Shown here piece after piece: positions 39,626 to 55,105 of a DNA stretch of 64,000 bases. The stretch's first letter is position 1. Each line of letters starts with the position of its first letter. Source of the DNA: Nitrospiraceae bacterium (GTDB lineage: Bacteria; Nitrospirota; Nitrospiria; Nitrospirales; Nitrospiraceae); the NCBI GenBank assembly GCA_037446055.1, contig JBBIJI010000016.1, positions 1 to 64,000 on the forward strand, read 5' to 3'. The notes beneath the pieces were generated by a model. That model ran no database searches. It was given only the letters and a program-made list of their open reading frames with translations, and was not told the origin of the DNA. The translations under genes and the position numbers were made by a program.

Positions 39626-42600
39626 ATGACGTCTTACTTCTATAACCCCAAGCGCAGGCGGTGTCGCGACCAGGCGATGTTCGGCCTGCAAGCTGCGGTG
39701 TTCGCGAGTAGCCTGCTCGCTGCACCGTGGCTTTTTGCGGCCGGGCCGGGAGATCAGTCCCATCAGGGACATGCGACTCCTGTCTCAATGCCGGGCTGGA
39801 CCCAAGCATTGAAGGGCCAGACGGTGGTGGAAAACGCCATCGAGGGCCGCGCGGGCAACGCGGAAAAGATGGAGATGCAGCACCATCGTTTAATGCAGAA
39901 GCTCGAGCAGCAGGCCCAGCAGGATGCCAGGGCCCAGCAGACATCGGGCGCCTTCAACAGTATGTCGATGATGCACCAATATATGGGCCAGGACGGCAGC
40001 AGCTTCCTGCTCATGACGGATGCGGCGAAGGGCGAACCGGTGTTGAGCACAGGCGGTCGTTGCCCGGCCAACGCACCGACCAAGCAGTACGATGTCTCGA
40101 TGATCAACGTCGAGATCACGCTGAACCGGTGGTTGGATTACTATCCCGGTTACATGTACGTGCTGACGGAGAACCTGGACAAGGTTCGAGCGGAGGAGGC
40201 GAAGAACAAAGCGGCACGAGAGAAGGAGGGGTTCGACCCCGGGGCGGTGAACACGGGATTGCAGGGCGATATGATTCAACCATTGGTCCTGCGCGCCAAC
40301 CAAGGCGATTGCGTCAAGATGACGCTCCGCAACCAGATGGAAGGCGAGGATGGGAGTCTGTTCATCCAGGCCTCCAGCATGATCGTGAGCGCGACGGGCA
40401 AGCCGGCGACGACAACCAATCCCGATTCGATCCTGGCGCCCGGCAAGTCGCAGGAATTCGAGTGGTATATCCACCCCCACATGCAGGAAGGGGTGCGGCA
40501 GTTCCATTCCTACAGCCATGACCGCGAGTTGACGGTGCTGGGATTGTTCGGAGCCTTCGTCATCGAGCCGAAGGGTTCCAGGTATCTCGACCCGTTGGGG
40601 ACCGGCCCGGCGCCTGAGGCGAAGAGCGGCTGGCAAGTGATGATTGATAACGGCTCGGGCCCGGATTTCCGCGAGCACGTGATTTTCTATCACGAGGTCG
40701 GGGACGAGGCGTTCCGGCCCCTGAACAAGAAGGGCGACTTCTTGCCCCAGCGCGATCCGCTTACGGACGCCTATCGTCCAGGCGGCCGCGCACTGAACTA
40801 CCGCAGTGAACCGTTCGGTATCGATCAGATGCATTTGCAGCACGAGTACTTCGGGTTCGAAGATGAATCCATGGCCTATAGCGCCTATACCTTCGGCGAT
40901 CCGCCGACGACGATTCCGCGCGGATATCTCGGTGACCCGACGAAGTGGCGTATTGTGCATGGCGGGTCGGAAGTGTTCCATTCCCACCATCCCCACAGCG
41001 GGTCCATCCGTTGGATCCGCAGCCCGCGCGCGGAACCGCAGGACTTCTGGGCCGCAGCAGCGGACGGGCCGATCAAGTACCCAGTGGTTCGTACCAAATC
41101 CGACCGGGTCGATGTGGAAGTCATCGGACCGTCTGAGGCGCTGGATCTCGAGGCCGAAGGCGGCGCCGGGCAGTCTCAGCATTTAGCCGGCGAGTTTCTG
41201 TTCCACTGCCACGTGGCGCACCACTATGTCGCGGGCATGTGGGGCTATGGCCGGGTGTATAACACGTTGCAAGTCGGCCCAGGCCACACCGACACGATGC
41301 CGGACCTCCGGGAGTTGCCGGACCGTCAAGGCCGCATCAAGATGGGCGTGACCTCCGATAAGCTCATCGGCACCACGGTGGACTGGTTCGGCAAGCAGTT
41401 CAAGATCGTGGCGCGCAACCAGAAGACCGATTGGAAAGCCAATCCGGCAGTCGTGAACATCAAGGATTGGGTCGAGATGTATCTGCCGGCGCAGGGCAAG
41501 CCTGGCCATACGGACGACGAAAAGGGCCAGATCATGTCCTATGACGCGACCGTGTGGGATTGGAAGTGGGATGGTGATGTCGCGAAAGGCGAGCGGGAGA
41601 GCACGGCCAAGTATCCGAAGTATCCCGCCGCGGCCAAGTGGGATGACAGCACCAGACCGAACATCCTGTTCGATCCGACAACAGGCAAGATGTCGTGGCC
41701 GCTCTTTAAACCGCACTTCGGCAAGCGGGTGCCGTTCTCGGCCAACCACAGCGGTGCGCCCTGGTTGGAGCCGATCCACCAAGACGAAAACGGCGAGCGG
41801 ACGAGCGAACCGGCGCGGCCTGGCGAAAACGGCCGTTGGAGCTTGTGTCCGGATAATGCCAACACGAAGTTCTACAACATCAAGTTCATCCGGCTTCCCA
41901 TCACCCTGGCCAAGAAGCAGGGGAAGGAACCGCCGATCGTGGACAAGGACGGTCTGATCTACGTCTTGGCCGAGGAAGAAAGGCTGGTTCGGGCCAACGA
42001 CGACCTGAAATATCCGCTCGTGCTCCGCGCGAACGTGTATGACTGCGTGGACTCGATCCTGACCAGCGAGTGGGACGACGACGACTTCACCAACTTTCAG
42101 GCGTCCAAGATCAACATCCATCCGCATTTCTTCCAGTTCGACACGGGGAACTCGGATGGGGTGATCTCGGGCTTTGAATACGAGATGTCGGTCCGGCCCT
42201 ATACCATGCACGAGAAGAAGAACAAGCATGGGTTGCCGGTGCCGATGAACTCCAAGCTGGTGGAGGCAGCGAAAGCCGGTGCGAAGTCGATCAAGATCAA
42301 GATGGCGACCGGTGCGACCAAGTATCACGTGAATACGGAGTTGCAAGTCGGCGCGGACTGCTTGGAGCCCAGCAAGGACACTACGACGTCCTTGAAGCGG
42401 GACGCGAGCTGCGCCGAAGTTGCACGGATCAAGGAAATCAGCGGCGACACGATCACGTTCCACAAGCCGCTGAAGCACAACCATCCGGTGGGCGATATCG
42501 TGACGCCGGAGTTCGTGCGCTATCGGTGGTGGGTGGACGTGGACATGGGGACCGTGTTCTGGCATGACCACGCGTTCGGCGCGACGACCTGGCCGCACGG

Positions 42601-44572
42601 CGGATTCGGCGTGACGATCGTGGAGCCCTACGGGTCGACCTATCATGATCCGAAGAACGGCAAGCTGGTCTGGAGCGGTCCGATCGCGGACATTCACAGC
42701 AGCGAGCCGATCGGCTATGGAGTCAGCGGCAGCTTCCGTGAGCTGATGGTGTCCATCCACGACACGGTGCCTCACACCGTGAACGTGATCCAGGCGGGTA
42801 ATCCGCCCGGACAGCCGGTCGAAGTGGCGCTGGAAGCCGGTAAGACGGTGTCGTTCCAGATGCCGGAAAAGATCCTCAATGCGCCGAATCAGTACATCAA
42901 CGGCGGGACGCATACGACGGGGAGCGGTCTCAACTTCAGAGCCGAACCCTTTGCGCAACGTCTCGCGAACAATCCCGATACGTCCAAGCTGTTCAGCAGC
43001 GCGATCCACGGAGATCCCGATACGCCCTTGCTTCGCGCGTATGTGGGTGACACCGTGGTGTTCCGCCTGTTGCACCAGCTCATGAACGAGTCCCACGTGT
43101 GGACGCTCTCCGGCCATACGTTCCTGACGGAACGGTTTGCGGGAGACGCCAATCGGAAGTACTCGATTCACGTCGGGATTGCCGAGCGGTATGACCTGGT
43201 GACCAAGGCCGGTGGATTCCAAGGCATGCCGGGCGACTACATCCACTTCAATGGCCGAAGCTCGCACTTCGCCGAGGGTGGGTGGGGTATCTTCCGTGTG
43301 CTGGGGAAGCACGCGGACGACCTGATGCATCTGCCGACCGGCACGAAGCCGGTGGAAATCCCGGCCGTGCCGTCGTCAGTGTGCCCGTCCGATGCTCCTG
43401 TGAAGAACTTCAACGTGGTGGCGATGGATCGCCCGATGAAGCTCAACGCGAAGGCGCCGGACGCGATCGAGGTGGACTTCGAGCGTAAGATCGAGATGAC
43501 CGTGCCTGAGGGCAAGATCTACGCACTCGAGGAGGAAGTGACCAAAGTGGCCGGCGAAGTGATGCCGAATCCGCTCACGCTGCGGGTCAACTTGGGTGAC
43601 TGCATCAAAGTAAACCTGAAGAATAAGATGAAGGCGAGCCGGGCGTCGTTCTTCGCGCCGGGCCTGGCCTTCGATCCGAAAGACAGCCTGGGCCTGAACG
43701 TCGGGAACAACCCCGGCGATCAGACGATCGCTCCAGGCGAAAGCCGGACCTACACCTACTACGCGCATCCTGCCAACAAGGAGACGACGTCGTTGGTGTG
43801 GGATGGTGGCAACATCGTGACGAATCCGCGCAATGGTCTGTACGGCGCGGTGATCGTCGGGCCTCGTGGGTCGCAGTATCGCGATCCGGTCACGGGCGCC
43901 GACATCTCGCAGAAGAACTCCTGGAGGGCTGACGTGATCGTCGATGCCAGCCTGCCGGAGAATGTCGGCAAGCGGAATTACCGGGATGTGGCCCTCTTCT
44001 TCCAGGACGAGGACAACATCATCGGAACCGCGTTCATGCCCTATGTGCAGAACGTCGCGGGGCTGACGGCGGTCAACTACCGATCGGAACCGTACAAGTT
44101 CCGCGAGGAGCAGGGGTGCTCGCTGGGCAAGATCTTCCAGCCCTGCGTCGTAGCTAAGCCGGAAGATCCGGTGACGCCGTTGATCGAGGCGCACGCCGGC
44201 GATCCGGTCCGTATCCACGTCATCGGCGCCAACAGCGAGCAAAACGGGATGTTCGGGATCGAGGGCCATGAATGGCCGATCGAGCCCTACATGCCAGGGG
44301 CCGACCAGATCAGCGTCGTGGAGTACGCCGGGTCCGAGACCCTGGATGTCTTCCTCCGCGGCGGTGCGGGCGGACCGTATCGTCAGGTGGGAGACTTCGT
44401 GTGGTCCAACACCCGGTTGCCCTACACGCAATCAGGTCAGTGGGGCTACCTCCGTGTGTTGCCGGTCGGCGACTCCCGGATTCAACCGCTCGGCGCTGCG
44501 GCAATGGGCGCCAAGCGTGCGGAGACTCTACCGGAGCCCCAGGCTATTCCGACGGCCATGAAGCAGGAATAG
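39626..44572 (+). CDS. giant multicopper oxidase-like protein (1648 aa, multiple cupredoxin domains; MofA/MnxG-class size)
   Basis: Shine-Dalgarno AAGGAGG 6 nt upstream. N-terminal RR-containing signal-like segment. Copper motifs HSHHPHSG (HxH), LFHCHVAHHYVAGMWGY (HCH...H...GM), HPHFFQFD and WHDHAFGATTWPHGGFG (HxH). Confidence 0.85.
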   Translation: MTSYFYNPKRRRCRDQAMFGLQAAVFASSLLAAPWLFAAGPGDQSHQGHATPVSMPGWTQALKGQTVVENAIEGRAGNAEKMEMQHHRLMQKLEQQAQQDARAQQTSGAFNSMSMMHQYMGQDGSSFLLMTDAAKGEPVLSTGGRCPANAPTKQYDVSMINVEITLNRWLDYYPGYMYVLTENLDKVRAEEAKNKAAREKEGFDPGAVNTGLQGDMIQPLVLRANQGDCVKMTLRNQMEGEDGSLFIQASSMIVSATGKPATTTNPDSILAPGKSQEFEWYIHPHMQEGVRQFHSYSHDRELTVLGLFGAFVIEPKGSRYLDPLGTGPAPEAKSGWQVMIDNGSGPDFREHVIFYHEVGDEAFRPLNKKGDFLPQRDPLTDAYRPGGRALNYRSEPFGIDQMHLQHEYFGFEDESMAYSAYTFGDPPTTIPRGYLGDPTKWRIVHGGSEVFHSHHPHSGSIRWIRSPRAEPQDFWAAAADGPIKYPVVRTKSDRVDVEVIGPSEALDLEAEGGAGQSQHLAGEFLFHCHVAHHYVAGMWGYGRVYNTLQVGPGHTDTMPDLRELPDRQGRIKMGVTSDKLIGTTVDWFGKQFKIVARNQKTDWKANPAVVNIKDWVEMYLPAQGKPGHTDDEKGQIMSYDATVWDWKWDGDVAKGERESTAKYPKYPAAAKWDDSTRPNILFDPTTGKMSWPLFKPHFGKRVPFSANHSGAPWLEPIHQDENGERTSEPARPGENGRWSLCPDNANTKFYNIKFIRLPITLAKKQGKEPPIVDKDGLIYVLAEEERLVRANDDLKYPLVLRANVYDCVDSILTSEWDDDDFTNFQASKINIHPHFFQFDTGNSDGVISGFEYEMSVRPYTMHEKKNKHGLPVPMNSKLVEAAKAGAKSIKIKMATGATKYHVNTELQVGADCLEPSKDTTTSLKRDASCAEVARIKEISGDTITFHKPLKHNHPVGDIVTPEFVRYRWWVDVDMGTVFWHDHAFGATTWPHGGFGVTIVEPYGSTYHDPKNGKLVWSGPIADIHSSEPIGYGVSGSFRELMVSIHDTVPHTVNVIQAGNPPGQPVEVALEAGKTVSFQMPEKILNAPNQYINGGTHTTGSGLNFRAEPFAQRLANNPDTSKLFSSAIHGDPDTPLLRAYVGDTVVFRLLHQLMNESHVWTLSGHTFLTERFAGDANRKYSIHVGIAERYDLVTKAGGFQGMPGDYIHFNGRSSHFAEGGWGIFRVLGKHADDLMHLPTGTKPVEIPAVPSSVCPSDAPVKNFNVVAMDRPMKLNAKAPDAIEVDFERKIEMTVPEGKIYALEEEVTKVAGEVMPNPLTLRVNLGDCIKVNLKNKMKASRASFFAPGLAFDPKDSLGLNVGNNPGDQTIAPGESRTYTYYAHPANKETTSLVWDGGNIVTNPRNGLYGAVIVGPRGSQYRDPVTGADISQKNSWRADVIVDASLPENVGKRNYRDVALFFQDEDNIIGTAFMPYVQNVAGLTAVNYRSEPYKFREEQGCSLGKIFQPCVVAKPEDPVTPLIEAHAGDPVRIHVIGANSEQNGMFGIEGHEWPIEPYMPGADQISVVEYAGSETLDVFLRGGAGGPYRQVGDFVWSNTRLPYTQSGQWGYLRVLPVGDSRIQPLGAAAMGAKRAETLPEPQAIPTAMKQE

Positions 44573-44650
44573 TACGCATTGAGTCATGAGGACCGGGTGG
44601 TACAGGGGAGGTCCCTCGCCACCCGGCCTTCAGTCTTGTCTGGTTTCTGA

Positions 44651-44695
44651 GGGGGGGGAGCTGCGCGCAATGTGTGGCTCCCCTGTCTTTTTTTA
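44651..44695 (+). terminator. rho-independent terminator after the multicopper oxidase gene
   Basis: Stem GGGGAGC/GCTCCCC with a 15-nt loop, followed by tgtcttttttt. Confidence 0.6.
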
Positions 44696-44713
44696 GAAGT
44701 TAGGAGTTTTTTT

Positions 44714-44790
44714 GAGTTATGAGTTATGAGTGTTGAGTGGGGGCACATGGAAGCTCAGAACCTTCAGCGCAGAACTCATAACTCAGAACT
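44714..44790. repeat. family-1 palindromic repeat element: gagttatgagttatgagtgttgagtgg ... cagaactcataactcagaact
   Basis: Read directly. The two arms are reverse complements built from GAGTTATGA/TCATAACTC units. Confidence 0.65.
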
Positions 44791-44808
44791 TTAGAAAAGG
44801 AGGCCGAA

Positions 44809-45738
44809 GTGAAACAAATCATGACAAAGGCCGTCGTCGCGGTGCTCGTAGCCGGCTGCCTCAGCGTCCCCGCCTACGCCTATGAAGAGGTGACGGTCAC
44901 CGATGGCGGGAGTATCTCCGGATCCGTCACGCTTGTAGGGGAGGTGCCGAAGCCCAAGGGGTACAACCTCACGACGCTGCCGGATGCCATCTATTGCGGA
45001 CGTATCTCTGACGGCAGGGGGTGGCGTCTGCTCCAGCCGTTCAATGTGGGTGAGCACGGAGAATTCCGCCAGGTCGTCGTGTTGCTCCAGGAAATCGAGA
45101 AGGGGAAACCGTTCGGCGCGTACAAGCCTCCTCGGATCGAGGCGCGGGATTGCCGCTTCATGCCGTTCGTGACCGTCGTTCGCGATCACCACGATGTCGT
45201 GGTCGTAAATATGGACCCGGCGATGCACGATATCCAGGCCTATGAAACCTCGCATCTGGGGCCTCGGGTCTTGTTCAACGTTCCGCTTCCCATCAGCCCG
45301 CGGTATCCCCACGAAGCCGGGCTCAGCGCGCACTTCCACAAGCATTACGAAGGCACGCCGATGAACCAAACGGTCAAGATGACCAAAGGCCGCGAGATTT
45401 TCACGATGCAGTGCGGGTTTCACGCGTACATGGAAAGCTGGGCGTTGGTCGTGGATCATCCCTACTACGCGATTACCGACCAAGACGGCCGGTTCGAGAT
45501 CGACGACATTCCGCCCGGCACATACAAGGTCACCATCTGGCATCCCTATGTGCGCGAAACGTACGAAGAGACTGTGATCATCAAGCCGAAAGAGGAGACG
45601 ACCGTCGGCTTCAAAGTCGCTGCTCCGACCGGCCGCCTTTATGCCAATCAAATGGTCGAGAACGCATACGTGCGCTACACGATTACGGAGGACGTTCAGT
45701 CCCAAATCATTCCGACGTTGGAGAAGCAGACGTTCTAG
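44809..45738 (+). CDS. secreted cupredoxin-like protein (amicyanin-type C-x2-H-x2-M site) fused to a C-terminal beta-sandwich domain (carboxypeptidase-regulatory-like)
   Basis: GTG start with AAGGAGG 5 nt upstream. Lipobox VAGC. Motifs HHDVVVVNMDP (candidate His ligand) and QCGFHAYM (Cys-x2-His-x2-Met). C-terminal motif DGRFEIDDIPPGTYKVTIWH. Paralogous to 59356-60177. Confidence 0.7.
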   Translation: MKQIMTKAVVAVLVAGCLSVPAYAYEEVTVTDGGSISGSVTLVGEVPKPKGYNLTTLPDAIYCGRISDGRGWRLLQPFNVGEHGEFRQVVVLLQEIEKGKPFGAYKPPRIEARDCRFMPFVTVVRDHHDVVVVNMDPAMHDIQAYETSHLGPRVLFNVPLPISPRYPHEAGLSAHFHKHYEGTPMNQTVKMTKGREIFTMQCGFHAYMESWALVVDHPYYAITDQDGRFEIDDIPPGTYKVTIWHPYVRETYEETVIIKPKEETTVGFKVAAPTGRLYANQMVENAYVRYTITEDVQSQIIPTLEKQTF

Positions 45739-45746
45739 TGGGCAAT

Positions 45747-45822
45747 AGTCATTCGTCATTAGTCATTGGCGGGGGTCATCGAATTCTTTCACCAATGACC
45801 ATTGACCCTTGACCAGTGACGA
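45747..45822. repeat. family-2 palindromic repeat element (GTCATTNGTCATT / CCAATGACCATTGAC units)
   Basis: Read directly: agtcattcgtcattagtcattgg ... caccaatgaccattgacccttgaccagtgacg. Confidence 0.65.
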
Positions 45823-45837
45823 AAAGGCACAAGAGGC

Positions 45838-46746
45838 GTGGCAGGACCGACACTACATGCCGGATTTGTAAGCCTGATGGCATGGAGCCTACTGTCCGCC
45901 GTCGCGCAGGCCGATCACCTCACGCCGAAACATGACCCCTGGGCGCAGCCCTGGGAGCTGGAGCGGTTGGCGTTGCTGGAGGTTCCCGATGACATGGTGT
46001 TCGTGCCGGCAGGATCGTTCTTGATGGGCAGCGATCCTCGGGTGGATCGCGCGGCTGGGCCGCAGGAACAACCGCAGCGATCGGTCGTGCTCGATGCTTT
46101 TGCCATCGACCGGTACGAGGTCACGAACGTTCACTATCTCCGGTTCGTGTTGGCCACAGGGGCCACGTGGCCGCCGTATTGGACGCAGGATCCCTTCCCG
46201 GAGAAGCAGTCGCGGCACCCGGTCATTGGGGTGAGTTGGGAGGAAGCGGATCGCTACTGCCGGTGGGTGGGGAAGCGTCTTCCGACCGAGGCGGAATGGG
46301 AAAAGGCGGCGCGAGGGGGCGATGGTCGCATCTTCCCCTGGGGCGACGAGCCGGCGGGGTGGATCAAGAGCAACATCGCCCATCCGGGGTCCAAACGAGG
46401 CGTGAAGTATCCCCCGTTGGCGAACGTCGACCGGTATGAGCGCGGCGTCAGCCCTTACGGGGTCTACCAGATGGCGGGCAACGTGAGCGAATGGGTCGCC
46501 GATTGGTTTGATCCTGAATATTACCGGAAAGGAGTCAACGAGAACCCGAGAGGGCCGGCCGACGGCGAAGACAAGGTCTTCAGGGGAGGGTCGTGGAACG
46601 AGGACCCGGAGGTGGCGCGATCGGCCGGGCGGAATGCGGCAGCGCCGGACCACAGGAGTTATCTGATCGGGTTCCGGTGCGCGAGATCAGTCATAAACGT
46701 CAATGGTCAATTGTCAATGGTCAACGGAGGCGGACAAAGTCATTAG
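45838..46746 (+). CDS. FGE-sulfatase fold protein, single-Cys PvdO/NirV-like subfamily, secreted (copy 1); C-terminal 19 aa encoded by family-2 repeat
   Basis: GTG start. Signal peptide ends in AQA. Motifs RGGSWNEDP and GFRCARS. The tail VINVNGQLSMVNGGGQSH is translated from the repeat gtcataaacgtcaatggtcaattgtcaatggtcaac. Confidence 0.8.
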   Translation: MAGPTLHAGFVSLMAWSLLSAVAQADHLTPKHDPWAQPWELERLALLEVPDDMVFVPAGSFLMGSDPRVDRAAGPQEQPQRSVVLDAFAIDRYEVTNVHYLRFVLATGATWPPYWTQDPFPEKQSRHPVIGVSWEEADRYCRWVGKRLPTEAEWEKAARGGDGRIFPWGDEPAGWIKSNIAHPGSKRGVKYPPLANVDRYERGVSPYGVYQMAGNVSEWVADWFDPEYYRKGVNENPRGPADGEDKVFRGGSWNEDPEVARSAGRNAAAPDHRSYLIGFRCARSVINVNGQLSMVNGGGQSH

Positions 46747-46852
46747 TCATCGGTCATTGGCGAAAAGTCTCTCTTGCCACCCAATGACCGTTGACCAATG
46801 ACATCTTCTGCTCCAGTGACCAATGACGATTGACCGTCGACCAATGACCGAA
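46689..46852. repeat. family-2 palindromic repeat element (long copy, about 160 nt)
   Basis: Read directly: reiterated tgaccaatgac/gtcattggtca units on opposing arms. It overlaps the 3' end of the preceding CDS. Confidence 0.65.
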
Positions 46853-46868
46853 ACAAGGAGGCCGAGTA

Positions 46869-47852
46869 ATGGAAGCGAAGAATATGGGTGCGTATAGGAA
46901 GCTTGAGTGGGTCATCAACGCGTTGCTGATCGCGGCAGCGATCCTCGCGCTGGTGAAGGTCGCGTGGGGACTCGATACGCAGGATATCACGGTCGAGTGG
47001 ACCGCTGAAGGGAAGAAGATCGCCGCGCAACGGGTGGCCGACTGGCCGGTCAAGGAGGAGATGGTCCTGGTCCCTGCCGGCGAATTTCTCATGGGCAGCG
47101 ACAAGAAAGTGGATCGCTTGGCGTATCGCTCCGAGATGCCGCAGCGCAGCGTGTATCTCGATGCATTCGAGATCGACAAATACGAAGTGACCGCGCTGCA
47201 GTACCTCAAGTTTGTGCTGGCCGCGAACCGGCCACCACAGCTCGACTGGCGATATGACGGCGGCAACTTCCAGGAAACCATGGCGCATCACCCGATCATG
47301 CACGTGAGCTGGTACGACGCGGACGCCTATTGTAAGTGGGCCGGGAAGCGCCTCCCGACCGAAGCCGAGTGGGAGAAGGCGGCGCGCGGGACGGATGGTC
47401 GGATCAATCCGTGGGGCAACCAGACGGCAGGATTGAGCCGGGCGAACTTCGGCCGCTCGGGACTGTCCGGGCCGGTTCGCGACCGGCCCGAACGGCTGCT
47501 GCTGTATCCGCCGATCATCTCGGTCGACAAATATGAGAACGCCGTGAGTCCCTACGGCATCCATCAGATGATCGGCAACGTGGCTGAATGGGTGGCGGAC
47601 TGGTACCAACCCGATTATTACGCGACGGCTCCGAGCCGCAATCCGAAGGGGCCGGAAACAGGAACGCAAAAAGCCTTCCGCGGCGGCGGCTGGATCGACA
47701 GCACCACCACGATGCGGGCGGCGATGCGGAATGGGACCGACCCCAACACGAAGATGAATTGGCTGGGCTTCCGGTGCGCGCGCGACGCGCAGAATGATCG
47801 GGCCCTATCTGAGTCGCCGCAGGTACGGGTCTCGCGGGCGAGTGGGGAATAA
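46869..47852 (+). CDS. FGE-sulfatase fold protein, single-Cys PvdO/NirV-like subfamily, secreted (copy 2)
   Basis: Strong Shine-Dalgarno AAGGAGG. Signal/TM segment. Motifs MVLVPAGEFLMGSD, RGGGWIDSTT and GFRCARD. Confidence 0.85.
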   Translation: MEAKNMGAYRKLEWVINALLIAAAILALVKVAWGLDTQDITVEWTAEGKKIAAQRVADWPVKEEMVLVPAGEFLMGSDKKVDRLAYRSEMPQRSVYLDAFEIDKYEVTALQYLKFVLAANRPPQLDWRYDGGNFQETMAHHPIMHVSWYDADAYCKWAGKRLPTEAEWEKAARGTDGRINPWGNQTAGLSRANFGRSGLSGPVRDRPERLLLYPPIISVDKYENAVSPYGIHQMIGNVAEWVADWYQPDYYATAPSRNPKGPETGTQKAFRGGGWIDSTTTMRAAMRNGTDPNTKMNWLGFRCARDAQNDRALSESPQVRVSRASGE

Positions 47853-47875
47853 GATTCTCGCTTGGGAGAGGGCGG

Positions 47876-48406
47876 GTGAACCTGGTCGTCCATATCCCGG
47901 AAACGTCGGTCGAAGCGACGCCCTATGTGCAGACACTCATGAAACGGGCGCCGAGCTTCACGATCGAAGGGCAAGACTGGATCGCGATTTTCCCGCAATT
48001 GCCCGATGCCATCGATCTGGCGCTCCAGATCGTGGGTGAAAGCGTCCGCGTTCCGGACGCCTGGGCGAGCATGAACGGACGGCAGATCTCGAGCCTCCTG
48101 CGGCTGTGGGCGAGGCTGGAGTGTTACCGCGAGAGCCTCGATGCGCCGAGCCCTGAAGAGCACTGCCTTCGCAAGGCGGGCAAACACAATCTTCTGGAGG
48201 GCTGCTCGGGCCCGACCTGTCCCGTGTCTTGCCAATTTGTGTGCATGCCATGCCGCGCGGAGATTCAGAGTAGCGGTGTACCGCCCGTCGAAGGGCACCT
48301 CTCGCGCCTCGCAGTCACCGCCGAGGTGGAGTGGTGCCCCAATCTTCGCCTGCCCGAAAACCGGCGAGTAGCGAATAGAGAACAGCGAACAGCGAGCAGA
48401 GAATAG
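47876..48406 (+). CDS. hypothetical protein with Cys-rich C-terminal region (CSGPTCPVSCQFVCMPC); 3' end runs into family-3 repeat
   Basis: GTG-start ORF immediately after FGE copy 2. Seven Cys in 25 residues. The last 14 codons are repeat-derived. Confidence 0.35.
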   Translation: MNLVVHIPETSVEATPYVQTLMKRAPSFTIEGQDWIAIFPQLPDAIDLALQIVGESVRVPDAWASMNGRQISSLLRLWARLECYRESLDAPSPEEHCLRKAGKHNLLEGCSGPTCPVSCQFVCMPCRAEIQSSGVPPVEGHLSRLAVTAEVEWCPNLRLPENRRVANREQRTASRE

Positions 48407-48510
48407 CCATGGAAAAGCTGATAGCGAGTAGCTGATGGCCAATAGCGAGCAACTCCGAGCATCCTGCTCCTGCTGTTTTCTATTCGCTACCAGCTATTCG
48501 CTGTTCGCTG
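48364..48510. repeat. family-3 palindromic repeat element (AGCGAATAG / GAACAGCGA units versus CTATTCGCT / TCGCTGTTC)
   Basis: Read directly: gagtagcgaatagagaacagcgaacagcgagcagagaatagcc ... ctattcgctaccagctattcgctgttcgctg. Confidence 0.7.
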
Positions 48511-48672
48511 TCCCCATCATAGGCCGAATGGCCTATTCCCCTGCCTGACAAGAATCACATTGGATGCCGGAGGCAGTCAAGGCGCCTCTGCGAAAGATTG
48601 CGTAGGCTTGCGGCGCGTGTGGGCTGTCTCGATACATCGACAATTCGACACATCTTACAAAGGAGGAGCGTG

Positions 48673-49365
48673 ATGAAGAGATACGATCAGAGAGTGAGGG
48701 CCACGAGCCTGATCATCATGGTCTTGCTGGCTCTCGGGACCATGTTTGCGCCCTGGTCGGCCTGGGCGGAGGAGACCGGCAATATGGTGGTGTTCAAGGG
48801 CGGGTTCATGAATCTGAGCGAGGACCGCGGCAGGCAGATTTTTACCGACACGAATGGCCTCACGGGAGTCAACGGAGGCAACGCCGGGTGGTATGTCGGA
48901 GCGTGGTTGGACTTGGGCCTTTCCAAAGATGCCTGGGGTCTGATGAAGGGAATCACAGGGATAGGAGAAATCGGTTTGCAGTTCAACCGGATCAATTCAG
49001 CGAGAGTGAATAACACCGCTGGGAGCGTGGCTGCCCATACTGTCACCGGTATTACCGCAGTCGATCCTCAGGTGGTCCAACTCACCATGGTGACCATCGA
49101 CGTGGCGCCGAAGCTGAAGTTTATGGAGGGCAACGCGTTTCGGCCCTGGATCATTCCTGTTGGGTTGGACATCCACGTGATCAGCCCCCCCTCGAATCGA
49201 ACGCAATATCTCGACGTCGGCGTGCAATTCGGCGCGGGGTTTGAATATGCAGTCTGGAAGGCCTTCAAGGTTGGAGCGGATGCCCGTTACCACTTGACGG
49301 CTAACATGACCAACACGAACAACTCTTACTTCCAGGTCGGGCCGTACGTCGGGATTACGTTCTGA
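48673..49365 (+). CDS. outer-membrane beta-barrel protein (OmpW/porin-like)
   Basis: Shine-Dalgarno AAAGGAGG. Signal peptide ends in AWA-EE. Alternating amphipathic strands. C-terminal Phe (GITF). Confidence 0.65.
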   Translation: MKRYDQRVRATSLIIMVLLALGTMFAPWSAWAEETGNMVVFKGGFMNLSEDRGRQIFTDTNGLTGVNGGNAGWYVGAWLDLGLSKDAWGLMKGITGIGEIGLQFNRINSARVNNTAGSVAAHTVTGITAVDPQVVQLTMVTIDVAPKLKFMEGNAFRPWIIPVGLDIHVISPPSNRTQYLDVGVQFGAGFEYAVWKAFKVGADARYHLTANMTNTNNSYFQVGPYVGITF

Positions 49366-49371
49366 TGGTAA

Positions 49372-49515
49372 GAAGCGAATAGCTGGTAGCAGGTAGCGGA
49401 TTGCTCTCGAACAGAAGCGAATAGCTGATAGCGAATAGCGGGTAGCTCTGAACTTCTTGCTGCAAGCTGTTCGCTACTTGCTATTCGCTATTCGGAGCTG
49501 CTCGCTACTTGCTCA
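49372..49515. repeat. family-3 palindromic repeat element, followed by a 14-bp perfect hairpin (CAACGGACAAGGTGG / CCACCTTGTCCGTT at 49543-49585)
   Basis: Read directly. Confidence 0.7.
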
Positions 49516-49732
49516 GAAAAGGGGAAGGAGCCTTGCCCAGCTCAACGGACAAGGTGGGGGCGTTCCTCCTGCCACCTTGTCCGTTCCCCGTTTGGCCCTC
49601 AAGTGAAGGGCCAATAGTGCAGAGCGGGATCTCCGGTATCGAGTTATATTTCTTGGGGATAGATTCCTGAGTGGTCTGCTCTGAACCCCGAACTCAATTC
49701 ATAATTCATCATTCATAATTCAGAATTGTTTC

Positions 49733-50839
49733 ATGCACCCCCCTCCACGCCTCGTCTACTGGGAAACCACGAAGCGCTGCAATTTACGCTGCGCGCACTG
49801 CCGTGCAATTCCGCAAACGCAGTCGTCTCCGGACGAGCTGTCGTTGGCCGAAGGCTTCAGACTCATCGACGCGATCGCCGAAGTGGGGCAACCCATTCTC
49901 GTGCTCACCGGCGGTGAGCCGCTGCTCCGGCGCGATCTCTTCGACTTAGCGACCTATGGCGCGTGGCGAGGGCTGCGAATGGCTCTGGCCACCAACGGGA
50001 CGCTTGTCAACCGCGACATGGCCAAACATGTCGTCGAGGCCGGATTCAAGCGAGTGTCGATCAGTCTCGACGGGCCGGACGCCGAGACGCATGACCGATT
50101 CCGCCGGGTACCGGGCGCGTTTGATCAAGCGGTGGATGGATTCATTCATCTGAAGGAGCTCGGCATGTCGATGCAGGTGAATACCACCGTCACCCTGCAG
50201 AACCGGGAACGACTTGAAGAGATCTATGAGTTGGTGCGGAAGCTCGGCGCCGACGCCTGGCATCTATTTTTGCTCGTCCCGGTCGGGTGCGGGCTGGAGA
50301 TCATGCGGACCGCCCAGCTCACTCCACGGGATTATGAAGAAGTGTTGTATTGGATCGACGAACTCGCTCAAACCGAGACGATGGAAATCCGCGCAACTTG
50401 CGCGCCGCACGCGCAGAGGATTCGGCTCCAGCGGCAGGCGATTGTTGAAGCCGGCGTTGATTCCCAGTCCGGTGATCGAACGGGTCGAGTTTCTAACTCA
50501 GAACTCAGAACTCAAGACTCAGAACTCCGAGCTTCCCGTCGCGGCTGCCTGGCCGGAACGGGCATTTGCTTTGTGTCTTATCGCGGGGAGGTCTTTCCAT
50601 GCGGCTACCTCCCGGTGTCAGCCGGGAACGTGCGCCAGCAATCCTTCAAATCTATCTGGGAGGAGGCGTCCGTTTTCGAGGAATTGCGTGATCCGAACTT
50701 GCTGCTGGGGAAGTGCGGAGTGTGCGAATATCGAATCGTCTGCGGCGGCTGCCGCGCGCGGGCCTTCGGGCAGACGGGCATTTATCTCTACGAAGAACCG
50801 TTCTGCAATTATCTTCCTGGCTCGGCGAGGACTGAATAG
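49733..50839 (+). CDS. radical SAM protein with C-terminal SPASM/twitch domain (anSME/NirJ/PqqE-like maturase); carries an in-frame repeat-derived 13-15 aa insertion
   Basis: Radical SAM motif CNLRCAHC. C-terminal motifs GCLAGTGICFVSYRGEVFPCG and CGVCEYRIVCGGCRARAF. The insertion VSNSELRTQDSELRAS is encoded by aactcagaactcagaactcaagactcagaactccgagc (50495-50532). No Shine-Dalgarno at the first ATG, so the start is uncertain. Confidence 0.8.
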   Translation: MHPPPRLVYWETTKRCNLRCAHCRAIPQTQSSPDELSLAEGFRLIDAIAEVGQPILVLTGGEPLLRRDLFDLATYGAWRGLRMALATNGTLVNRDMAKHVVEAGFKRVSISLDGPDAETHDRFRRVPGAFDQAVDGFIHLKELGMSMQVNTTVTLQNRERLEEIYELVRKLGADAWHLFLLVPVGCGLEIMRTAQLTPRDYEEVLYWIDELAQTETMEIRATCAPHAQRIRLQRQAIVEAGVDSQSGDRTGRVSNSELRTQDSELRASRRGCLAGTGICFVSYRGEVFPCGYLPVSAGNVRQQSFKSIWEEASVFEELRDPNLLLGKCGVCEYRIVCGGCRARAFGQTGIYLYEEPFCNYLPGSARTE

Positions 50840-50882
50840 CGAGCAGCGAACAGAGAATAGCGAGCAGCGAACAGCGGGCAGC
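50834..50882. repeat. family-3 repeat element (tgaatagcgagcagcgaacagagaatagcgagcagcgaacagcgggcagc); short partner arm gagctattcgctagttcag at 50968-50986
   Basis: Read directly. It overlaps the radical SAM stop codon. Confidence 0.65.
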
Positions 50883-51083
50883 TTTATGACGCCCTTTCCT
50901 TGTCCTTCCCCCGGGGACCCGTTGCTCCCCAAGATGCAGCGGGTGATGGGGAGGGAAGGGTGGGGGTGAGCTATTCGCTAGTTCAGATGAAAATAGTGCC
51001 CGGGACGGGGACAGGCACGCCGCTGCGGCGAGCCGGTCCCCTTCGAGCAAGATCGAGGGTCGAGCGACGGACGGGCGAGGGGC

Positions 51084-51902
51084 TTACGCGGCATTTCGAT
51101 ACAGGTAATCGGCGCCCACCGGTAAATGACCCAGCCATTGGAAGAAACGAGTCACTTCTTCACCGCGGAAAATGGAGCCATGTTGGGGGAGCATGGCGGT
51201 AATCCGGTACCCGGCCAGCTTCTTGATCATCCCGGCGACGGCCCGGTTACAGGACATGTACCGTTGGTGGAATCCCTGCATGGCTCTGATATGCGCGTCC
51301 CAGTTGTCGATGATGAGGTGGAAGGCATTGTCTTTATAGACAGACGCCCCGACATCGCCGGTAAATAAGAATCCGCTCTCCGAATCGAATAGCAGAATAT
51401 TCCCGGGTGAATGGAGATACGGCGCGGAAATGCACTCGAGGCGCCCTCCGCTCTTCAGCGTGATCGTCGCTCCTTCGTCGCCCACCGGGATATAGTTCAA
51501 CCTATAACTCTTCCCCGTGACATCCCGTGACTCGTAATGCGGCATGAACCGCTGCCACAGAGAGGAAATTACCAACTGGATGTTTTCGTTCCACTTCACC
51601 CAGCTCGGGAATGACGCGCAGATGTCGGGGTCTTGGTGGCTGAAATAGAGGTGCGAGACGGCGCTCGGTGACATCAGGTAACAGACCTTCTTGAATACCG
51701 GGGGGAAGCGGTCGAAGCCGCCGGGTTCCAGTAGGTAGCCTGCTCCTTCATCAATAATCAGATACGAGTTGCACTCGATTTCCTCTCCGGTGGAGTGAGC
51801 GCCGACCCAATAGATCTTGTGCGAGTCACCGTCATAGAGAAGGATGGGTTGGTCGGGGTCAACTGGCGAGTTCTTGAGTTCAAGCAATGGAAGCTTGGGC
51901 AT
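51084..51902 (-). CDS. MBL-fold protein, flavodiiron/ODP-like diiron domain without flavodoxin module
   Basis: Motifs HSTGEEIECNSYLIIDEGAGYLLEPGG, FSHQDPD and ITAMLPQHGSIFRG resemble the N-terminal beta-lactamase-like domain of flavodiiron and oxygen-binding diiron proteins. Confidence 0.6.
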   Translation of the reverse strand: MPKLPLLELKNSPVDPDQPILLYDGDSHKIYWVGAHSTGEEIECNSYLIIDEGAGYLLEPGGFDRFPPVFKKVCYLMSPSAVSHLYFSHQDPDICASFPSWVKWNENIQLVISSLWQRFMPHYESRDVTGKSYRLNYIPVGDEGATITLKSGGRLECISAPYLHSPGNILLFDSESGFLFTGDVGASVYKDNAFHLIIDNWDAHIRAMQGFHQRYMSCNRAVAGMIKKLAGYRITAMLPQHGSIFRGEEVTRFFQWLGHLPVGADYLYRNAA

Positions 51903-52181
51903 GCGAACACCTCCTCATGATTGGTAATGGGGTTATGCCCGGCCTCCAGACGGCATCTTAGGCGAAGCACGCCGCGATGCAAAGCCAATTCACCTTTTGA
52001 ACTTCGGCAGACGCCGGAGATCGATCCCCGAGCAACTCCGAGTAACAGGCGTGGGCAGCGAATGTATGGCGCGAACGGCAGGCAGCGAATAGCGAGGACG
52101 ATTTGGTGAAGCATGATTCGGTGATCCGGTGGAGTAATGTGCGAAACTTCGCCAGATCACCAAATCACCAATTCATACTTT

Positions 52182-52967
52182 TCACGGTCCGAGGTCTCGG
52201 GCGCACCGGAAGCCGAGGTCAAAAAACGTGCTCGCCGGTCCGAAGTAGTTTCGGTTGGTCGAGCGCAGGTCATAGAGCATGTTGTACCAAGAGCCTCCGC
52301 GCGCGACCTTGCTTCCGCCGCGAGCGGGCCCCGTCGGATTCCGATCGGGACTGCTCTTGTAGTAATTCACGTCGTACCAATCTGCGACCCACTCCCAGGT
52401 ATTGCCCGCCAGCTCATAGATCCCGTACGGGCTCTTCCCCGGCTCTAGACTTCCCACAGGCAACAGCGTCTCATACCCGATCCACGTCGCGCCGAAGTTC
52501 GCGCGGAGACGCGTCGGCTCCTCGTTCCCCCATGGGAACCTTCGTCCGTCGGTGCCCCGCGCGGCTTTCTCCCACTCGGCTTCGGTCGGGAGACGTTTCC
52601 CATAGTGGCGGCAGTAGGCATCGGCGTCATGCCAGGTGACGCCGACGACCGGACGACTGCCGTCGGTGACATGGTTCACATCCTTCCACTTCGACGGCGG
52701 CTCGCGACCGGTCTCTTGCATGAATCGACCGTATTGGGCAGTCGTCACCTCGAACTTATCCATATAGAACGCATCGAGGGAGACTCGATGGACAGGTTTC
52801 TCATCCGCCTCCCACCCTTCACTGCCCATCGTGAATTCTCCGGCTGGAACGAGAACCATCGGGGCGCCGTCCTTTCCGGTGATCTCGGGTGATCGTTCCT
52901 GAGCAAGGGCAAGTGCCGTCCACGAAATGACTGTTGCGAGGAGCGCGGTGAAGATTGAGAGTCGCAT
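52182..52967 (-). CDS. FGE-sulfatase fold protein, single-Cys PvdO/NirV-like subfamily, secreted (copy 3)
   Basis: Motifs MVLVPAGEFTMGSE, WHDADAYCRHYGKRLPTEAEWEKAARG, RGGSWYN and GFRCARDLGP. Start trimmed to MRLSIFTALL (signal peptide). Confidence 0.8.
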   Translation of the reverse strand: MRLSIFTALLATVISWTALALAQERSPEITGKDGAPMVLVPAGEFTMGSEGWEADEKPVHRVSLDAFYMDKFEVTTAQYGRFMQETGREPPSKWKDVNHVTDGSRPVVGVTWHDADAYCRHYGKRLPTEAEWEKAARGTDGRRFPWGNEEPTRLRANFGATWIGYETLLPVGSLEPGKSPYGIYELAGNTWEWVADWYDVNYYKSSPDRNPTGPARGGSKVARGGSWYNMLYDLRSTNRNYFGPASTFFDLGFRCARDLGP

Positions 52968-53440
52968 GGGCGGCGCCGTGCGTCGACTCAAACGATATAG
53001 CGAGGTCGCGGGCGATACGCCCTCAATAAGCTTGGCCATGCAAATCGAACGCCGAAGGGTATTCATTTGGCATCCCTTCTGGGCCACCAGAAGTTCGACA
53101 GCTCATCGAGCAAGGTCGATTGCCTCGATGCGCTCGGAAACGGTGAACCATACATCATTCTCCGTTGAGGCTCTCTCGACGAACGCTTCATACTTACTTA
53201 ACACCGCCCATTCTCTACAGCCCCGCCAGCGAAGGATCTCAGCGATAGGGAGCTTAACATTCGGTCCGCCCAGCCTTCTGTGGCATTGTGCAGCAGCTCA
53301 ATGAGGGTGTTTGTAGCTCTTTGACCCAGAGACGTACTGCATCCGCGCGGCAAGTCCCGTGGAATATCTTTCAACACGCATGAATAGTTAGCTCATTCCT
53401 CGGCTTGCTCGTGATTACAGGTGACGAAGAGGTGTAGTCC

Positions 53441-54214
53441 TTGCAACCCAGGTTTCTTGAGTACGCGCTTGCAAAGTCTTGCGCAAGTCCACGAGGCAGG
53501 GGAGTGAGACCCAAGCATTGCCTCATTGAAGGCTGCGACAGTTGCGGTTTACGTAGCAAGGCTGTGCTGTGCAACCTCACCGGAGAAGATCTCGCCGGCT
53601 TCGAGAAAATCAAGCGCTCCCTGATGTACGAACCTCAGCAGACGGTCTTCTACGAGGGCCATGCCTGCCTGGGCTTGTACTTGCTCTGTGCCGGCAAGGT
53701 CAAGCTTACCCGCTCTTCGGTCCGCGGCCAGCGACAGATCGTGCGCATCCTAGAGAGCGGCGAACTGATCGAGAAGCACGCGTTTCGGGCCAAGGCCATC
53801 CACGAAGTCACCTGTGAGACCCTGGAACCATCCCAGATCTGCCTGATCGAAAAGGAGCCCTACATGGCGCTCATCCAGCGCAACCCTGGGCTGGCCTTGA
53901 GCGTGATCCAACTCCTAAGCAGTGAACTGGGCATGAATATGGACCAGCTCGACCAGTTCACCTTCAAGACCGCGCGCGAGCGCCTGGCGGGACTGCTCGT
54001 GGAACTGGGCGAACGATTCGGCAAGAAGGCGGACGGCGGGCTTCTCGTGGGAATCACGCTCAAACGCGAGGAGGTGGCTGAAATGGCGGGCATCACCGTC
54101 GAAACGGCCATTCGGCTCCTCAGCGCCTTTCGGGACGAAGGACTCGTCAACATAGACGGACGAGCGATCACCCTCCTCAAGCCGGATCGCCTGGCCCGCA
54201 TCGCACGGCACTAA
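53441..54214 (+). CDS. Crp/Fnr family transcriptional regulator with N-terminal Cys cluster
   Basis: cNMP-binding fold (FYEGHACLGLYLLCAGKVKL). C-terminal HTH (REEVAEMAGITVETAIRLLS). N-terminal CLIEGCDSCG...C cluster reminiscent of FNR. Start uncertain (TTG in the ORF track). Confidence 0.75.
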   Translation: MQPRFLEYALAKSCASPRGRGVRPKHCLIEGCDSCGLRSKAVLCNLTGEDLAGFEKIKRSLMYEPQQTVFYEGHACLGLYLLCAGKVKLTRSSVRGQRQIVRILESGELIEKHAFRAKAIHEVTCETLEPSQICLIEKEPYMALIQRNPGLALSVIQLLSSELGMNMDQLDQFTFKTARERLAGLLVELGERFGKKADGGLLVGITLKREEVAEMAGITVETAIRLLSAFRDEGLVNIDGRAITLLKPDRLARIARH

Positions 54215-54216
54215 TC

Positions 54217-54412
54217 TGATAGCGAATAGCGAACAGCCAGCAGCTAACAGCAAATAGCGAGCAGCGAATAGCTCCGAGCGGCGCCTCTTTCAGCAGAATC
54301 CCCCTTTCTTCCCTGTCTTGCCCGGCTTATACCACCTAACTCTTAGCTGTTCCTAGCATTTAGCTACTCGCTATTCGCTGACTTTCGGCTACGCGCCACC
54401 TGCTGCTCGCTG
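54217..54412. repeat. family-3 palindromic repeat element (arms 54217-54275 and 54343-54412)
   Basis: Read directly: gatagcgaatagcgaacagccagcagctaacagcaaatagcgagcagcgaatagc ... tagctactcgctattcgctg. Confidence 0.65.
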
Positions 54413-54577
54413 ATCCCGAGCTATAGGTCCAAAGACCCATTCCTAGGCTTTGAGAAGAATCATAAGCCGGACCGGCTAACCACAGTGTTGGCTTACCTCG
54501 TTTTCTTTACTGTGGGCGTCGAAAAAGAAGGGTGCGGGCCGAACGCATGACGATGGCTCCCTCCACAGAGCCGGCCA

Positions 54578-55105
54578 ATGATGAGGCGATCACGGCGCAC
54601 ACGTAAGGAAGCAGCAGTGGACCCCGTGGCCCTTCTGAAACGGGAACACGAGATGATCCTGGAACAGTTGCACATGATCGAGGCCACGATCGGACCGAAG
54701 AGCAAGAAAGGAGCTGCGCTGTTGGAGCCGGGTCGAAGCACGCTCTGCGAACTGTTCCGTTTTTTCACCGGACGAGTGGACGTGCACTACAAGCGGGAAG
54801 CGACGCTGATTTCCGCGCTCAGTCGCGTTGTTGGGCGTAAGAACGGAGAACGCGAACAATTCGAGGGCTTGCTCTGTGAGCATCGCGCACTGAAAGCGGA
54901 TGCGGCGAGCATTATGAAGCGACTTTCGAAACACACTGCAACCCCGTCCGTTGCCGACGGCGCCGATCGGTTGGGAATTCGGTCGTTCGTGAAGCGCTTC
55001 CGCAGTCATATTGCATGCGAGGAGCGCATTCTCTACGTGCTGGCCGGCATGCGACTGAACGCCGAGCAAAAACAGCGCGTCGGTCATCGCATGTTGCAGG
55101 TCTGA
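54578..55105 (+). CDS. hemerythrin-like (HHE cation-binding) domain protein
   Basis: Motifs LLKREHEMILEQL, HYKREATLI and ACEERILYV give the H...HxxxE...H...HxxxxD-type spacing of hemerythrin-like metal sites. The 5' end is probably shorter than the ORF track shows. Confidence 0.6.
   Translation: MMRRSRRTRKEAAVDPVALLKREHEMILEQLHMIEATIGPKSKKGAALLEPGRSTLCELFRFFTGRVDVHYKREATLISALSRVVGRKNGEREQFEGLLCEHRALKADAASIMKRLSKHTATPSVADGADRLGIRSFVKRFRSHIACEERILYVLAGMRLNAEQKQRVGHRMLQV

Follow-up and report, generated by a model that had tools for sequence, protein, structure and literature searches.

Short tandemly repeated repetitive (STRR) elements with 7-bp units form hairpins between hupS and hupL in cyanobacteria; their function is unknown, and transcript stability or translational coupling has been proposed for them without proof (PMC2670836). 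Heptameric simple sequence repeats are over-represented in bacterial intergenic DNA, which has been attributed to polymerase slippage (Rehm et al. 2015, PMC4692102). The heptamers of Xanthomonas lie between the same genes in related species and vary there in length and sequence; the unit is GGGAATC in Xanthomonas and GGGGAYT in Nostoc (PMC4692102). TAACTGA repeats have a patchy spread across phyla, in Beggiatoaceae, Cyanobacteria and Bacteroidetes (MacGregor 2015, PMC4679880). Here we analysed a stretch of 64,000 nt from a Nitrospiraceae bacterium (assembly GCA_037446055.1, contig JBBIJI010000016.1, positions 1 to 64,000 of the forward strand; below, the window), in which two inverted heptamer arrays with GTCA and TGAC cores flank FGE1, a gene of the FGE-sulfatase fold. 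These elements belong to a repeat class that is known, if poorly understood, and represent non-coding spacer DNA, not the boundaries of a mobile cassette.

Two heptamer hairpins flank FGE1

A first-pass annotation, made from the sequence alone, had placed two related repeat elements, called family 2, on either side of FGE1, and this is what we find: inverted arrays of GTCAnnn and nnnTGAC heptamers lie at 45747-45822 and 46687-46852 (Table 1). In each, 3-5 GTCAnnn units stand in tandem, followed by a loop that is not conserved and by the inverted nnnTGAC units. How are they built? The upstream element, 76 nt in size, consists of three GTCAnnn units, a loop and four nnnTGAC units. The TAG stop of the CarboxypepD_reg-like gene lies 8 nt 5' of its first array, and FGE1 starts within 16 nt of the element. 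Its RNA fold reaches -30.5 kcal/mol (z -2.75), and none of 200 shuffles was equally stable. The downstream element is a single long, imperfect hairpin and not two loose copies. It spans the whole distance from the last conserved codon of FGE1 to 2 nt before the ribosome-binding site of FGE2, and folds with a dG of -81.8 kcal/mol (z -8.9) for the plus strand as RNA, -88.8 (z -10.5) for the minus strand as RNA and -40.1 (z -6.5) as DNA. For both elements the minus strand folds as well as the plus strand or better.

Tandem Repeats Finder (TRF) detects period 7 at 45746-45767 (3.1 copies), 45791-45820 (4.3), 46699-46724 (3.7) and 46813-46849 (5.3). The arms of the two elements are 83-88% similar, with 88% identity between the inner 5' arm (46738-46762) and 45747-45771 and 83% between the outer 3' arm (46813-46852) and 45791-45825, while their loops (45770-45790 and 46763-46780) are unrelated. 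One could then regard the downstream element as one copy nested in another. This was rejected, because the segments between its arms also pair (46728-46737 with 46803-46812), and because its unit order, GTCAAnn and then GTCATnn, parallels that of the orthologous element in L003 (contigs and loci other than the window are denoted by L numbers, and L001 is Nitrospira moscoviensis). Both points argue that the 166-nt element descended in place. A search of Rfam at a permissive E-value gave only sub-threshold chance matches to plant and animal microRNA hairpin models, with 27 bits against the 80-102 required.

The window is Nitrospira DNA of about 60% GC, and a read-assembly contig from SRR11582173 matches 44970-47746 at 100%. 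The nearest named relative for FGE1 is Nitrospira tepida (cluster of the 88%-identical protein P0001). In the public gene call P0197, FGE1 starts at ATG 45877 and has 289 aa, with an identical tail. No repeat polymorphism was seen within strains, L237, the single other sample of the window's own strain, being 100% identical to the window and L002 identical to L001.

The FGE1 tail and the FGE1-FGE2 junction

It had been claimed that the 3' repeat supplies the last 19 codons of FGE1, which is exact. The FGE-sulfatase Pfam match stops at residue 283 of 302, and from residue 284 up to and including its stop the gene lies in the 5' half of the downstream hairpin; the TAG stop (46744-46746) arises at a GTCATTA/GTCA unit junction inside the inner 5' arm. 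Is this tail derived from the repeat, or is it conserved protein sequence? Among 120 homologues the tail past the conserved G[FL]RC motif has 2-59 residues (median 25), it has at most 4 residues in 13 of the 120, and tail 6-mers are common to only 2% of homologue pairs. Tails so variable between orthologues confirm a repeat origin, as first proposed, and not a set of conserved C-terminal residues. Judged from these sequences, the FGE1 tail is probably meaningless, lineage-specific junk that was added accidentally.

The reading frame in L001 and L003 passes through the 5' arm and the loop and ends at a TGA in a TGAC unit of the 3' arm. In a run of three nnnTGAC units every reading frame meets a TGA, which makes the 3' arm a universal stop; tails arise because the GTCAnnn units of the 5' arm contain no obligatory stop.

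A heptamer array is present at every FGE1-FGE2 junction examined, and its family varies with lineage, even between proteins at least 90% identical. The family is GTCAnnn in the window, L001, L003, L240 and L242-L245, AGCGAAC in L205 and L206, GTGAAGC in L004, L131 and L238, and GGCGAAA in L125. Homology with the relatives ends exactly at the last domain codon and restarts at the ribosome-binding site, where it picks up 3' of the downstream element at the motif ACAAGGAGGCCGA. The element is the spacer. Between L003 and L242-L245, the orthologous GTCA element differs by a clean 7-nt indel of one unit in the 3' arm, which is direct evidence of change in heptamer register. When metagenomes were scanned with FGE1, most hits were distant paralogues of about 45% identity, and only three could be used as orthologues.

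Gene order at the locus

The order of the 1,648-aa multicopper-oxidase-like gene, the CarboxypepD_reg-like gene, FGE1 and FGE2 is kept in L001, L004, L205, L206, L238 and L240, with FGE2 lost in L240; the CarboxypepD_reg-like gene is missing from the locus in L003 and L125. Gene order in the Nitrospira contigs is conserved whether or not family-2 repeats are present. In N. moscoviensis the CarboxypepD_reg-like gene overlaps FGE1, so that there is neither a 5' spacer nor a 5' element. No GTCA arrays were found in the 5' spacer of L205 and L206, the closest relatives (86-88% protein identity), and in L003 the GTCA family flanks FGE2, not FGE1.

Some further features of these loci may be noted. 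The spacer orthologous to the upstream element has G-rich direct heptamers in L004 (7316-7366) and L131 (3925-4000), GGCGAGG/GGCACGA and GGGGATAG/GGGATAT, similar to the GGGNATC repeats of G-quadruplex type known from Xanthomonas and Nostoc. The locus 39626-47852 is a conserved Nitrospira operon, with orthologous loci in L001, L004, L238 and L240, and its 1,648-aa protein has a C-terminal Cu-oxidase_3 domain. Genes for a sigma-54 activator and a response regulator lie upstream of the operon in L001 and L003. L238 (1391-1547 and 8748-8903; also L239) contains a 158-nt dispersed repeat, 92% identical, in two spacers 7 kb apart. This repeat has no relation to the heptamer arrays and may be a small mobile element of a conventional sort.

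Heptamer arrays in the window

Further copies of such repeats, for which the first-pass annotation had suggested a search, exist: about 12 of the 48 spacers in the 64-kb window contain heptamer arrays, and the GTCA hairpins flanking FGE1 are two of them. The motif GTCATTGGTCA, with at most 2 mismatches, has 32 matches in the window, 17 of them inside these two elements; 14.8 +/- 3.5 are expected, and none of 100 shuffles reached 32. TRF and an independent lag-7 scan locate arrays of period 7 at about 15 places; these represent three families or more, among them GAGTTAT, GTCATTG and AGCGAAY. Adjacent spacers often have one family in common, such as AGCGAAY in five spacers between 48.4 and 55.2 kb. 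On rough gene calls, identity in intergenic DNA peaks at lag 7 (0.292), lag 14 (0.280) and lag 21 (0.283) over a background of about 0.255, while coding DNA has peaks at multiples of 3 only. For 10 of 11 arrays in the window, the distance of the array start from a stop codon falls between -40 and +14 nt. A related copy had also been proposed at the window edge. A heptamer array does exist there; it is of a different kind, with direct units only and the TGAC core in opposite orientation to the family-2 units. It is not a family-2 hairpin, because no inverted partner was found in the window or beyond its end (L241 3935-4100).

The spacers with heptamer arrays are strongly clustered: 9 of 11 consecutive spacers at 44573-55290 have them, and 0 of 22 in the first 29 kb. 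The products encoded at 44573-55290 include FGE-fold proteins, an outer-membrane beta-barrel, a radical SAM/SPASM protein, a Crp-family regulator and hemerythrin, and the gene of a NirK-like multicopper oxidase follows at 55291-56499 in the same copper/redox region. Within the radical-SAM/SPASM open reading frame (ORF) at 49733-50839, an (AACTCAG)x4.7 array at 50493-50527 encodes SNSELRTQDSELR in a variable interdomain linker; its orthologue in L004, 69% identical, has a linker of the same length and unrelated sequence. This in-frame array means that a heptamer array is tolerated inside a gene. A 176-aa ORF without Pfam match (47876-48406) enters an AGCGAAY array from 48370, and its C-terminus is probably repeat-derived too.

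Table 1. Features around FGE1 and other heptamer arrays, in window coordinates
Feature	Position	Strand	Basis
CarboxypepD_reg / fn3_3-like gene, 309 aa	44809-45738	+	Pfam; orthologues in L001, L004, L205, L131, L238, L240
Upstream element, 5' arm GTCATTC GTCATTA GTCATTG G	45747-45769		TRF period 7, repeat search, fold
Upstream element, loop, 21 nt, sequence unlike that of the downstream loop	45770-45790		sequence, fold
Upstream element, 3' arm CCAATGAC CATTGAC CCTTGAC CAGTGAC	45791-45822		TRF, repeat search, fold
FGE1, FGE-sulfatase-fold gene, 302 aa from GTG 45838	45838-46746	+	Pfam E 7e-62
Downstream element, single long imperfect heptamer-repeat hairpin, 166 nt	46687-46852		RNA and DNA folds
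Repeat-encoded FGE1 tail SVINVNGQLSMVNGGGQSH (residues 284-302, 46687-46743) and TAG	46687-46746	+	translation, homologue tails
Outer 5' arm GTCATAAAC GTCAATG GTCAATT GTCAATG GTCAACG G	46690-46727		TRF 46699-46724 period 7, fold
Inner 5' arm AGTCATTA GTCATCG GTCATTG GCG	46738-46762		repeat search
Apical loop of downstream hairpin	46763-46780		fold
Inner 3' arm CCAATGAC CGTTGAC CAATGAC	46781-46802		repeat search, TRF
Outer 3' arm CCAGTGAC CAATGAC GATTGAC CGTCGAC CAATGAC CG	46813-46852		repeat search, fold
FGE2 ribosome-binding site AAGGAGG (46855-46861) and ATG (46869-46871)	46855-46871	+	sequence; comparison with L205, L206, L003, L001, L004, L240
FGE2, FGE-sulfatase-fold paralogue	46869-47852	+	Pfam, tblastn
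GAGTTAT/ATAACTC array, hairpin	44709-44790		TRF, lag-7 scan
AGCGAAY/RTTCGCT arrays, five spacers	48.4, 49.4, 50.85, 54.2, 55.1 kb		TRF, lag-7 scan
Other heptamer arrays, AATTCAT and GAATTCT	49695; 62832		TRF, lag-7 scan
Window-edge direct array (GTGACGA)x4.6, begins 2 nt past a stop codon	63943-63974	+	TRF

GTCA hairpins in other phyla

Are GTCA hairpins confined to Nitrospira? A pattern of three GTCA cores at 7-nt spacing, a gap of 10-40 nt and three TGAC cores, which is its own reverse complement, was scanned against species-representative genomes. At least 120 matches were obtained in 596 Gb, against about 0.1 expected by chance. Among the matches listed, the hairpins occur in at least 10 phyla: Nostocales (Anabaena, Nostoc, Calothrix, Tolypothrix and Fischerella), Acidobacteriota (especially Pyrinomonadaceae), Chloroflexota, Bacteroidota, Planctomycetota, Nitrospirota, Nitrospinota, Thermodesulfobacteriota, Gemmatimonadota and Verrucomicrobiota. 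They are also found on 24 viral or proviral contigs. The genome and viral scans together, among the matches listed, give a set of 148 elements. None of the 148 lies inside an ORF, and their loops are as unrelated to one another as those in the window. Of 129 classified elements, 79% are in co-directional, 12% (15 elements) in convergent and 9% in divergent spacers, near the background mix of spacers; a depletion from divergent promoter spacers is not clear, with 9% of elements against 14% of background spacers. For the 102 co-directional cases, the median distance is 10.5 nt from stop codon to element and 27 nt from element to start codon.

The elements have a polarity. On either strand the GTCA arm is read first, and the opposite arrangement is rare: GTCA-first copies outnumber opposite ones by 10 to 0 among the non-ascertained copies in the flanks of the scan, and by 5 to 0 at orthologous loci of Nitrospira. 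With the free positions filled in, the consensus over the 148 hairpins is G-T-C-A-[T/G]-T-[A/G]; the letter at position 6 is T in 68%. In other heptamer families of the window the G-richer arm also comes first, and for the AGCGA family in viral contigs the counts are 2 vs 0, on few hits. Several of the exceptions with opposite polarity belong to a separate GTGACRR...YYGTCAC family, which resembles the array at the window edge.

Discussion

What generates these elements? The explanation to which we give a fair degree of belief, as the probable one, is that they are STRR-type palindromes which grow at the DNA level by 7-nt slippage and fold-back, that the protein tail is junk, and that the stem-loop between cistrons has consequences at the RNA level. 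The arrays would change by slipped-strand mispairing in 7-nt register, and the complementarity of the arms would be kept at the DNA level, most likely by fold-back (intrastrand) template switching or by copying from neighbouring arrays. Growth would halt only where selection bites, at the last functional codon upstream and at the next ribosome-binding site, so that an element fills the whole gap. The upstream ORF would then run into the open 5' arm and gain a lineage-specific tail. Transcribed within the CarboxypepD_reg-FGE1-FGE2 operon, the element should fold into a long stem-loop between the cistrons. Ribosomes that terminate within the stem, or directly 5' of it, may melt the hairpin, so that its A/C-rich 3' arm becomes free immediately upstream of the following Shine-Dalgarno sequence. 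The likeliest consequences would be that translation of the two genes is coupled and/or that the mRNA segment upstream is protected. Is the hairpin selected as RNA? Comparison of sense and antisense folding in the 102 co-directional elements gave no sense advantage: the sense fold is the stabler one in 47 elements, the antisense fold in 55, with 213 vs 230 G.U pairs. Arm complementarity therefore looks like a property of the DNA.

Several observations do not fit this explanation well. The recurrence of the same heptamer cores across phyla is not explained by slippage and fold-back alone, nor is the strand-symmetric polarity, with a G/T-rich 5' arm. At the unconstrained positions of the 5' arm there are 227 G vs 71 C and 360 T vs 230 A; G exceeds C in the 5' arm of 87 elements and C exceeds G in 21 (p = 1e-10). 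Two matched unbiased scans of the viral collection found 26 GTCA-first elements vs 6 with the opposite arrangement. Clusters of FGE1 at 90% identity or more have at least 8 discrete tail types, each of constant length with point substitutions and on different core backgrounds, which looks as if whole spacer alleles had been replaced or recombined, and not like continuous drift. Taken together, the cross-phylum cores, the polarity and the discrete tails look more like replacement or recombination, or the work of a sequence-specific partner, than like free slippage. The junction structure is only loosely kept, with z-scores of +0.4 and -0.1 in L206 and L205, -0.6 to -2.7 in others and -8.9 in the window. 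Covariation in the orthologous GTCA element found no support (three distinct sequences, covariation term +0.56), and every effect of the hairpins at the RNA level is something that we infer. These points count against slippage and fold-back as the whole account.

Could the elements have moved, or have moved FGE1? It had been suggested that the family-2 copies are the ends of a composite cassette which carried FGE1 into the locus, and two related inverted-repeat elements do flank the gene, one within 16 nt of its start and the other overlapping its end. We give this practically no credence. FGE1 occupies the same position in every orthologous Nitrospira locus examined, whether it is flanked by GTCA arrays, by another family or, on the 5' side, by nothing; the empty site for which a check in related strains had been proposed does not appear in these loci, and conserved synteny contradicts a cassette. 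The unrelated loops and the missing 5' element of N. moscoviensis point the same way, as do the family around FGE2 instead of FGE1 in L003 and the age of the two genes, old paralogues with 52% identity (tblastn). No target-site duplication was found in the sequences flanking the upstream element (TGGGCAATA / GAAAAGGCA) or the downstream element (CGCGAGATCA / GAAACAAGG), and no recombinase domain in ten neighbouring ORFs scanned with Pfam. A different kind of mobility is unlikely but deserves to be kept in mind: the hairpins themselves may be non-autonomous mobile elements, resembling miniature inverted-repeat transposable elements (MITEs) or the very small dispersed repeats of cyanobacteria. 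An enzyme acting in trans would recognise the hairpin and heptamer core and copy it into gaps between stop codon and ribosome-binding site; around FGE1 two members of one family would have inserted independently, and the 166-nt element would be one copy nested in another. This would account for the GTCA-core architecture in at least 10 phyla far above chance and on viral or proviral contigs, for different families at the same junction of proteins at least 90% identical, and for a 5' site that is empty in N. moscoviensis and has no GTCA arrays in L205 and L206. The polarity bias fits common descent, and the inner arms of the 3' element are like the 5' element, with 88% identity over 25 nt when short flanks are counted. 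It is opposed by the unrelated loops, by the absence of target-site duplications and of conserved termini besides the heptamers, and by unit number and unit sequence that vary continuously. Moreover, the 166-nt element is one palindrome whose unit order suggests descent in place, and no transposase candidate was seen in the window.

The remaining readings concern what the hairpins do once transcribed or bound. That they are transcription terminators or attenuators, dividing the genes into independent units, seems very improbable. They are stable stem-loops directly 3' of stop codons, and the 15 convergent cases among the 129 classified elements fit snugly between their genes. However, none of the heptamer hairpins is followed by a T-run, and a consensus scan of 44.4-50 kb gives a single intrinsic terminator, at 44654-44684; the heptamer stem-loop is thus not a terminator. 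Its 3' arm ends 2 nt before the next ribosome-binding site with no promoter-like site between, and a scan of 44.4-50 kb found no sigma-70-like promoter. The classical terminator (GGGGGAGCTGCG...GCTCCCC and T-run, 44654-44693) follows the 1,648-aa gene, is distinct from the heptamer hairpin at 44709-44790, and is kept in all lineages, with counterparts in L001 (about 8942-8985), L003 (about 9915-9955), L125, L126 and L205. It is also quite doubtful, though less remote, that the arrays are multi-site platforms for a protein which binds single-stranded nucleic acid with a footprint of 7 nt, for example one with a cold-shock domain. Such a protein would sit on the G/T-rich 5' arm during transcription, keep the stem open and so make the hairpin a condition-dependent switch for the downstream gene. 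CspB of B. subtilis has the heptanucleotide consensus 5'-GTCTTTG/T-3', with strong preference for C3, T2, T4 and T6 (PMC1904285), and cold-shock proteins have been suggested as readers of the TAACTGA heptamers (PMC4679880). The GTCATTG unit agrees with the CspB consensus at 6 of 7 positions, the hairpin consensus has its frequent T at position 6, and a reader of the first-transcribed arm would explain both the 7-nt period and the polarity. But position 4 is A where T is preferred, and AGCGAAY, GAGTTAT and, from orthologous spacers, GTGAAGC and GGCGAAA are unlike the consensus; the comparison was made after the motif had been seen, and protein binding in Nitrospira is purely putative. More broadly, GTCA hairpins may form a coherent cross-phylum class, with polarity built in, abutting stop codons and maintained by a dedicated sequence-specific partner. 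We consider this an improbable reading, though one with some claim to attention. The partner could be a 7-nt-footprint single-strand binding protein (for example with a cold-shock domain) or an unrecognised hairpin-copying enzyme. If it is true, the hairpins are a widespread system of post-transcriptional control or mobility, and not passive debris of slippage.

Why do such spacers matter? ORFs in Nitrospira, and evidently in many other phyla, routinely enter the arrays, and C-terminal extensions of this kind should therefore not be taken as functional domains. Hypervariable tails also inflate the apparent diversity of proteins, as with the discrete types among near-identical FGE1 genes. Nitrospira are key nitrite oxidisers, and the hairpins cluster in a copper-enzyme region with the multicopper-oxidase-like gene, two FGE-fold genes and the NirK-like multicopper oxidase; if they tune intercistronic expression, they are relevant to the regulation of the multicopper-oxidase-like/FGE operon. 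One heptamer core across phyla, the abutment on stop codons and the strand-symmetric polarity give handles on the 35-year-old question of STRR function, and of these the polarity rule and the stop-codon abutment are most worth following up.

Comparison with known systems

Palindromes next to genes are of several kinds, and the present elements share some features with each. Like the attC site of an integron cassette, they are imperfect palindromes right after an ORF and may overlap its end; unlike in integrons, there is here no integrase and no attC core site, and FGE1 is fixed in a conserved operon. Like MITEs they are small (76 and 166 nt), have inverted termini, exist in multiple copies and flank genes. 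Unlike MITEs they lack target-site duplications, the copies have no internal sequence in common, and the number of units per arm varies. Repetitive extragenic palindromes (REPs) and the mosaic elements built with them (BIMEs) in enterobacteria and pseudomonads are likewise abundant imperfect palindromes in transcribed gaps past stop codons, which can stabilise upstream mRNA and are not terminators. A REP differs in being one palindrome, about 35 nt long, whose sequence is conserved within its family, and in having no internal 7-nt tandem organisation. REPs are also linked to RAYT transposases, of which none was seen here, though no search was aimed at them.

The heptamers of Xanthomonas and Nostoc and the TAACTGA repeats are closer. 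They too have period 7, a strong intergenic bias, some inverted repeats, a patchy distribution over phyla, and a proposed origin by slippage with a post-transcriptional role. They are, however, mostly direct, G-quadruplex-forming or immediately 5' of start codons, whereas the Nitrospira elements are mainly paired inverted arrays at stop codons, with a polarity bias not described for the others (PMC4692102, PMC4679880). Literature searches found no paper on heptamer repeats in Nitrospira.

STRR sequences are the nearest match. They share 7-nt tandem units in at least 3 copies, several families that coexist, dispersed intergenic sites and unit-number variation between related strains, here the one-unit indel between L003 and L242-L245. 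As between hupS and hupL, inverted arrays form a stem-loop between co-directional, presumably co-transcribed genes with no terminator or promoter between them. One classical STRR unit, reportedly given by Mazel and co-workers in 1990, is TTGGTCA, a rotation of GTCATTG. The differences are that the units here are less perfect, GTCA being their conserved core while three positions vary, that the element reaches into the 3' end of a gene, whose stop codon it provides, and that the host is Nitrospira of about 60% GC and not a heterocystous cyanobacterium, outside the host range of the original definition. Yet Anabaena, Nostoc, Calothrix, Tolypothrix and Fischerella have GTCA hairpins of identical architecture, and their presence in these Nostocales and in at least nine other phyla means that the class is broader than STRR sequences as originally defined.

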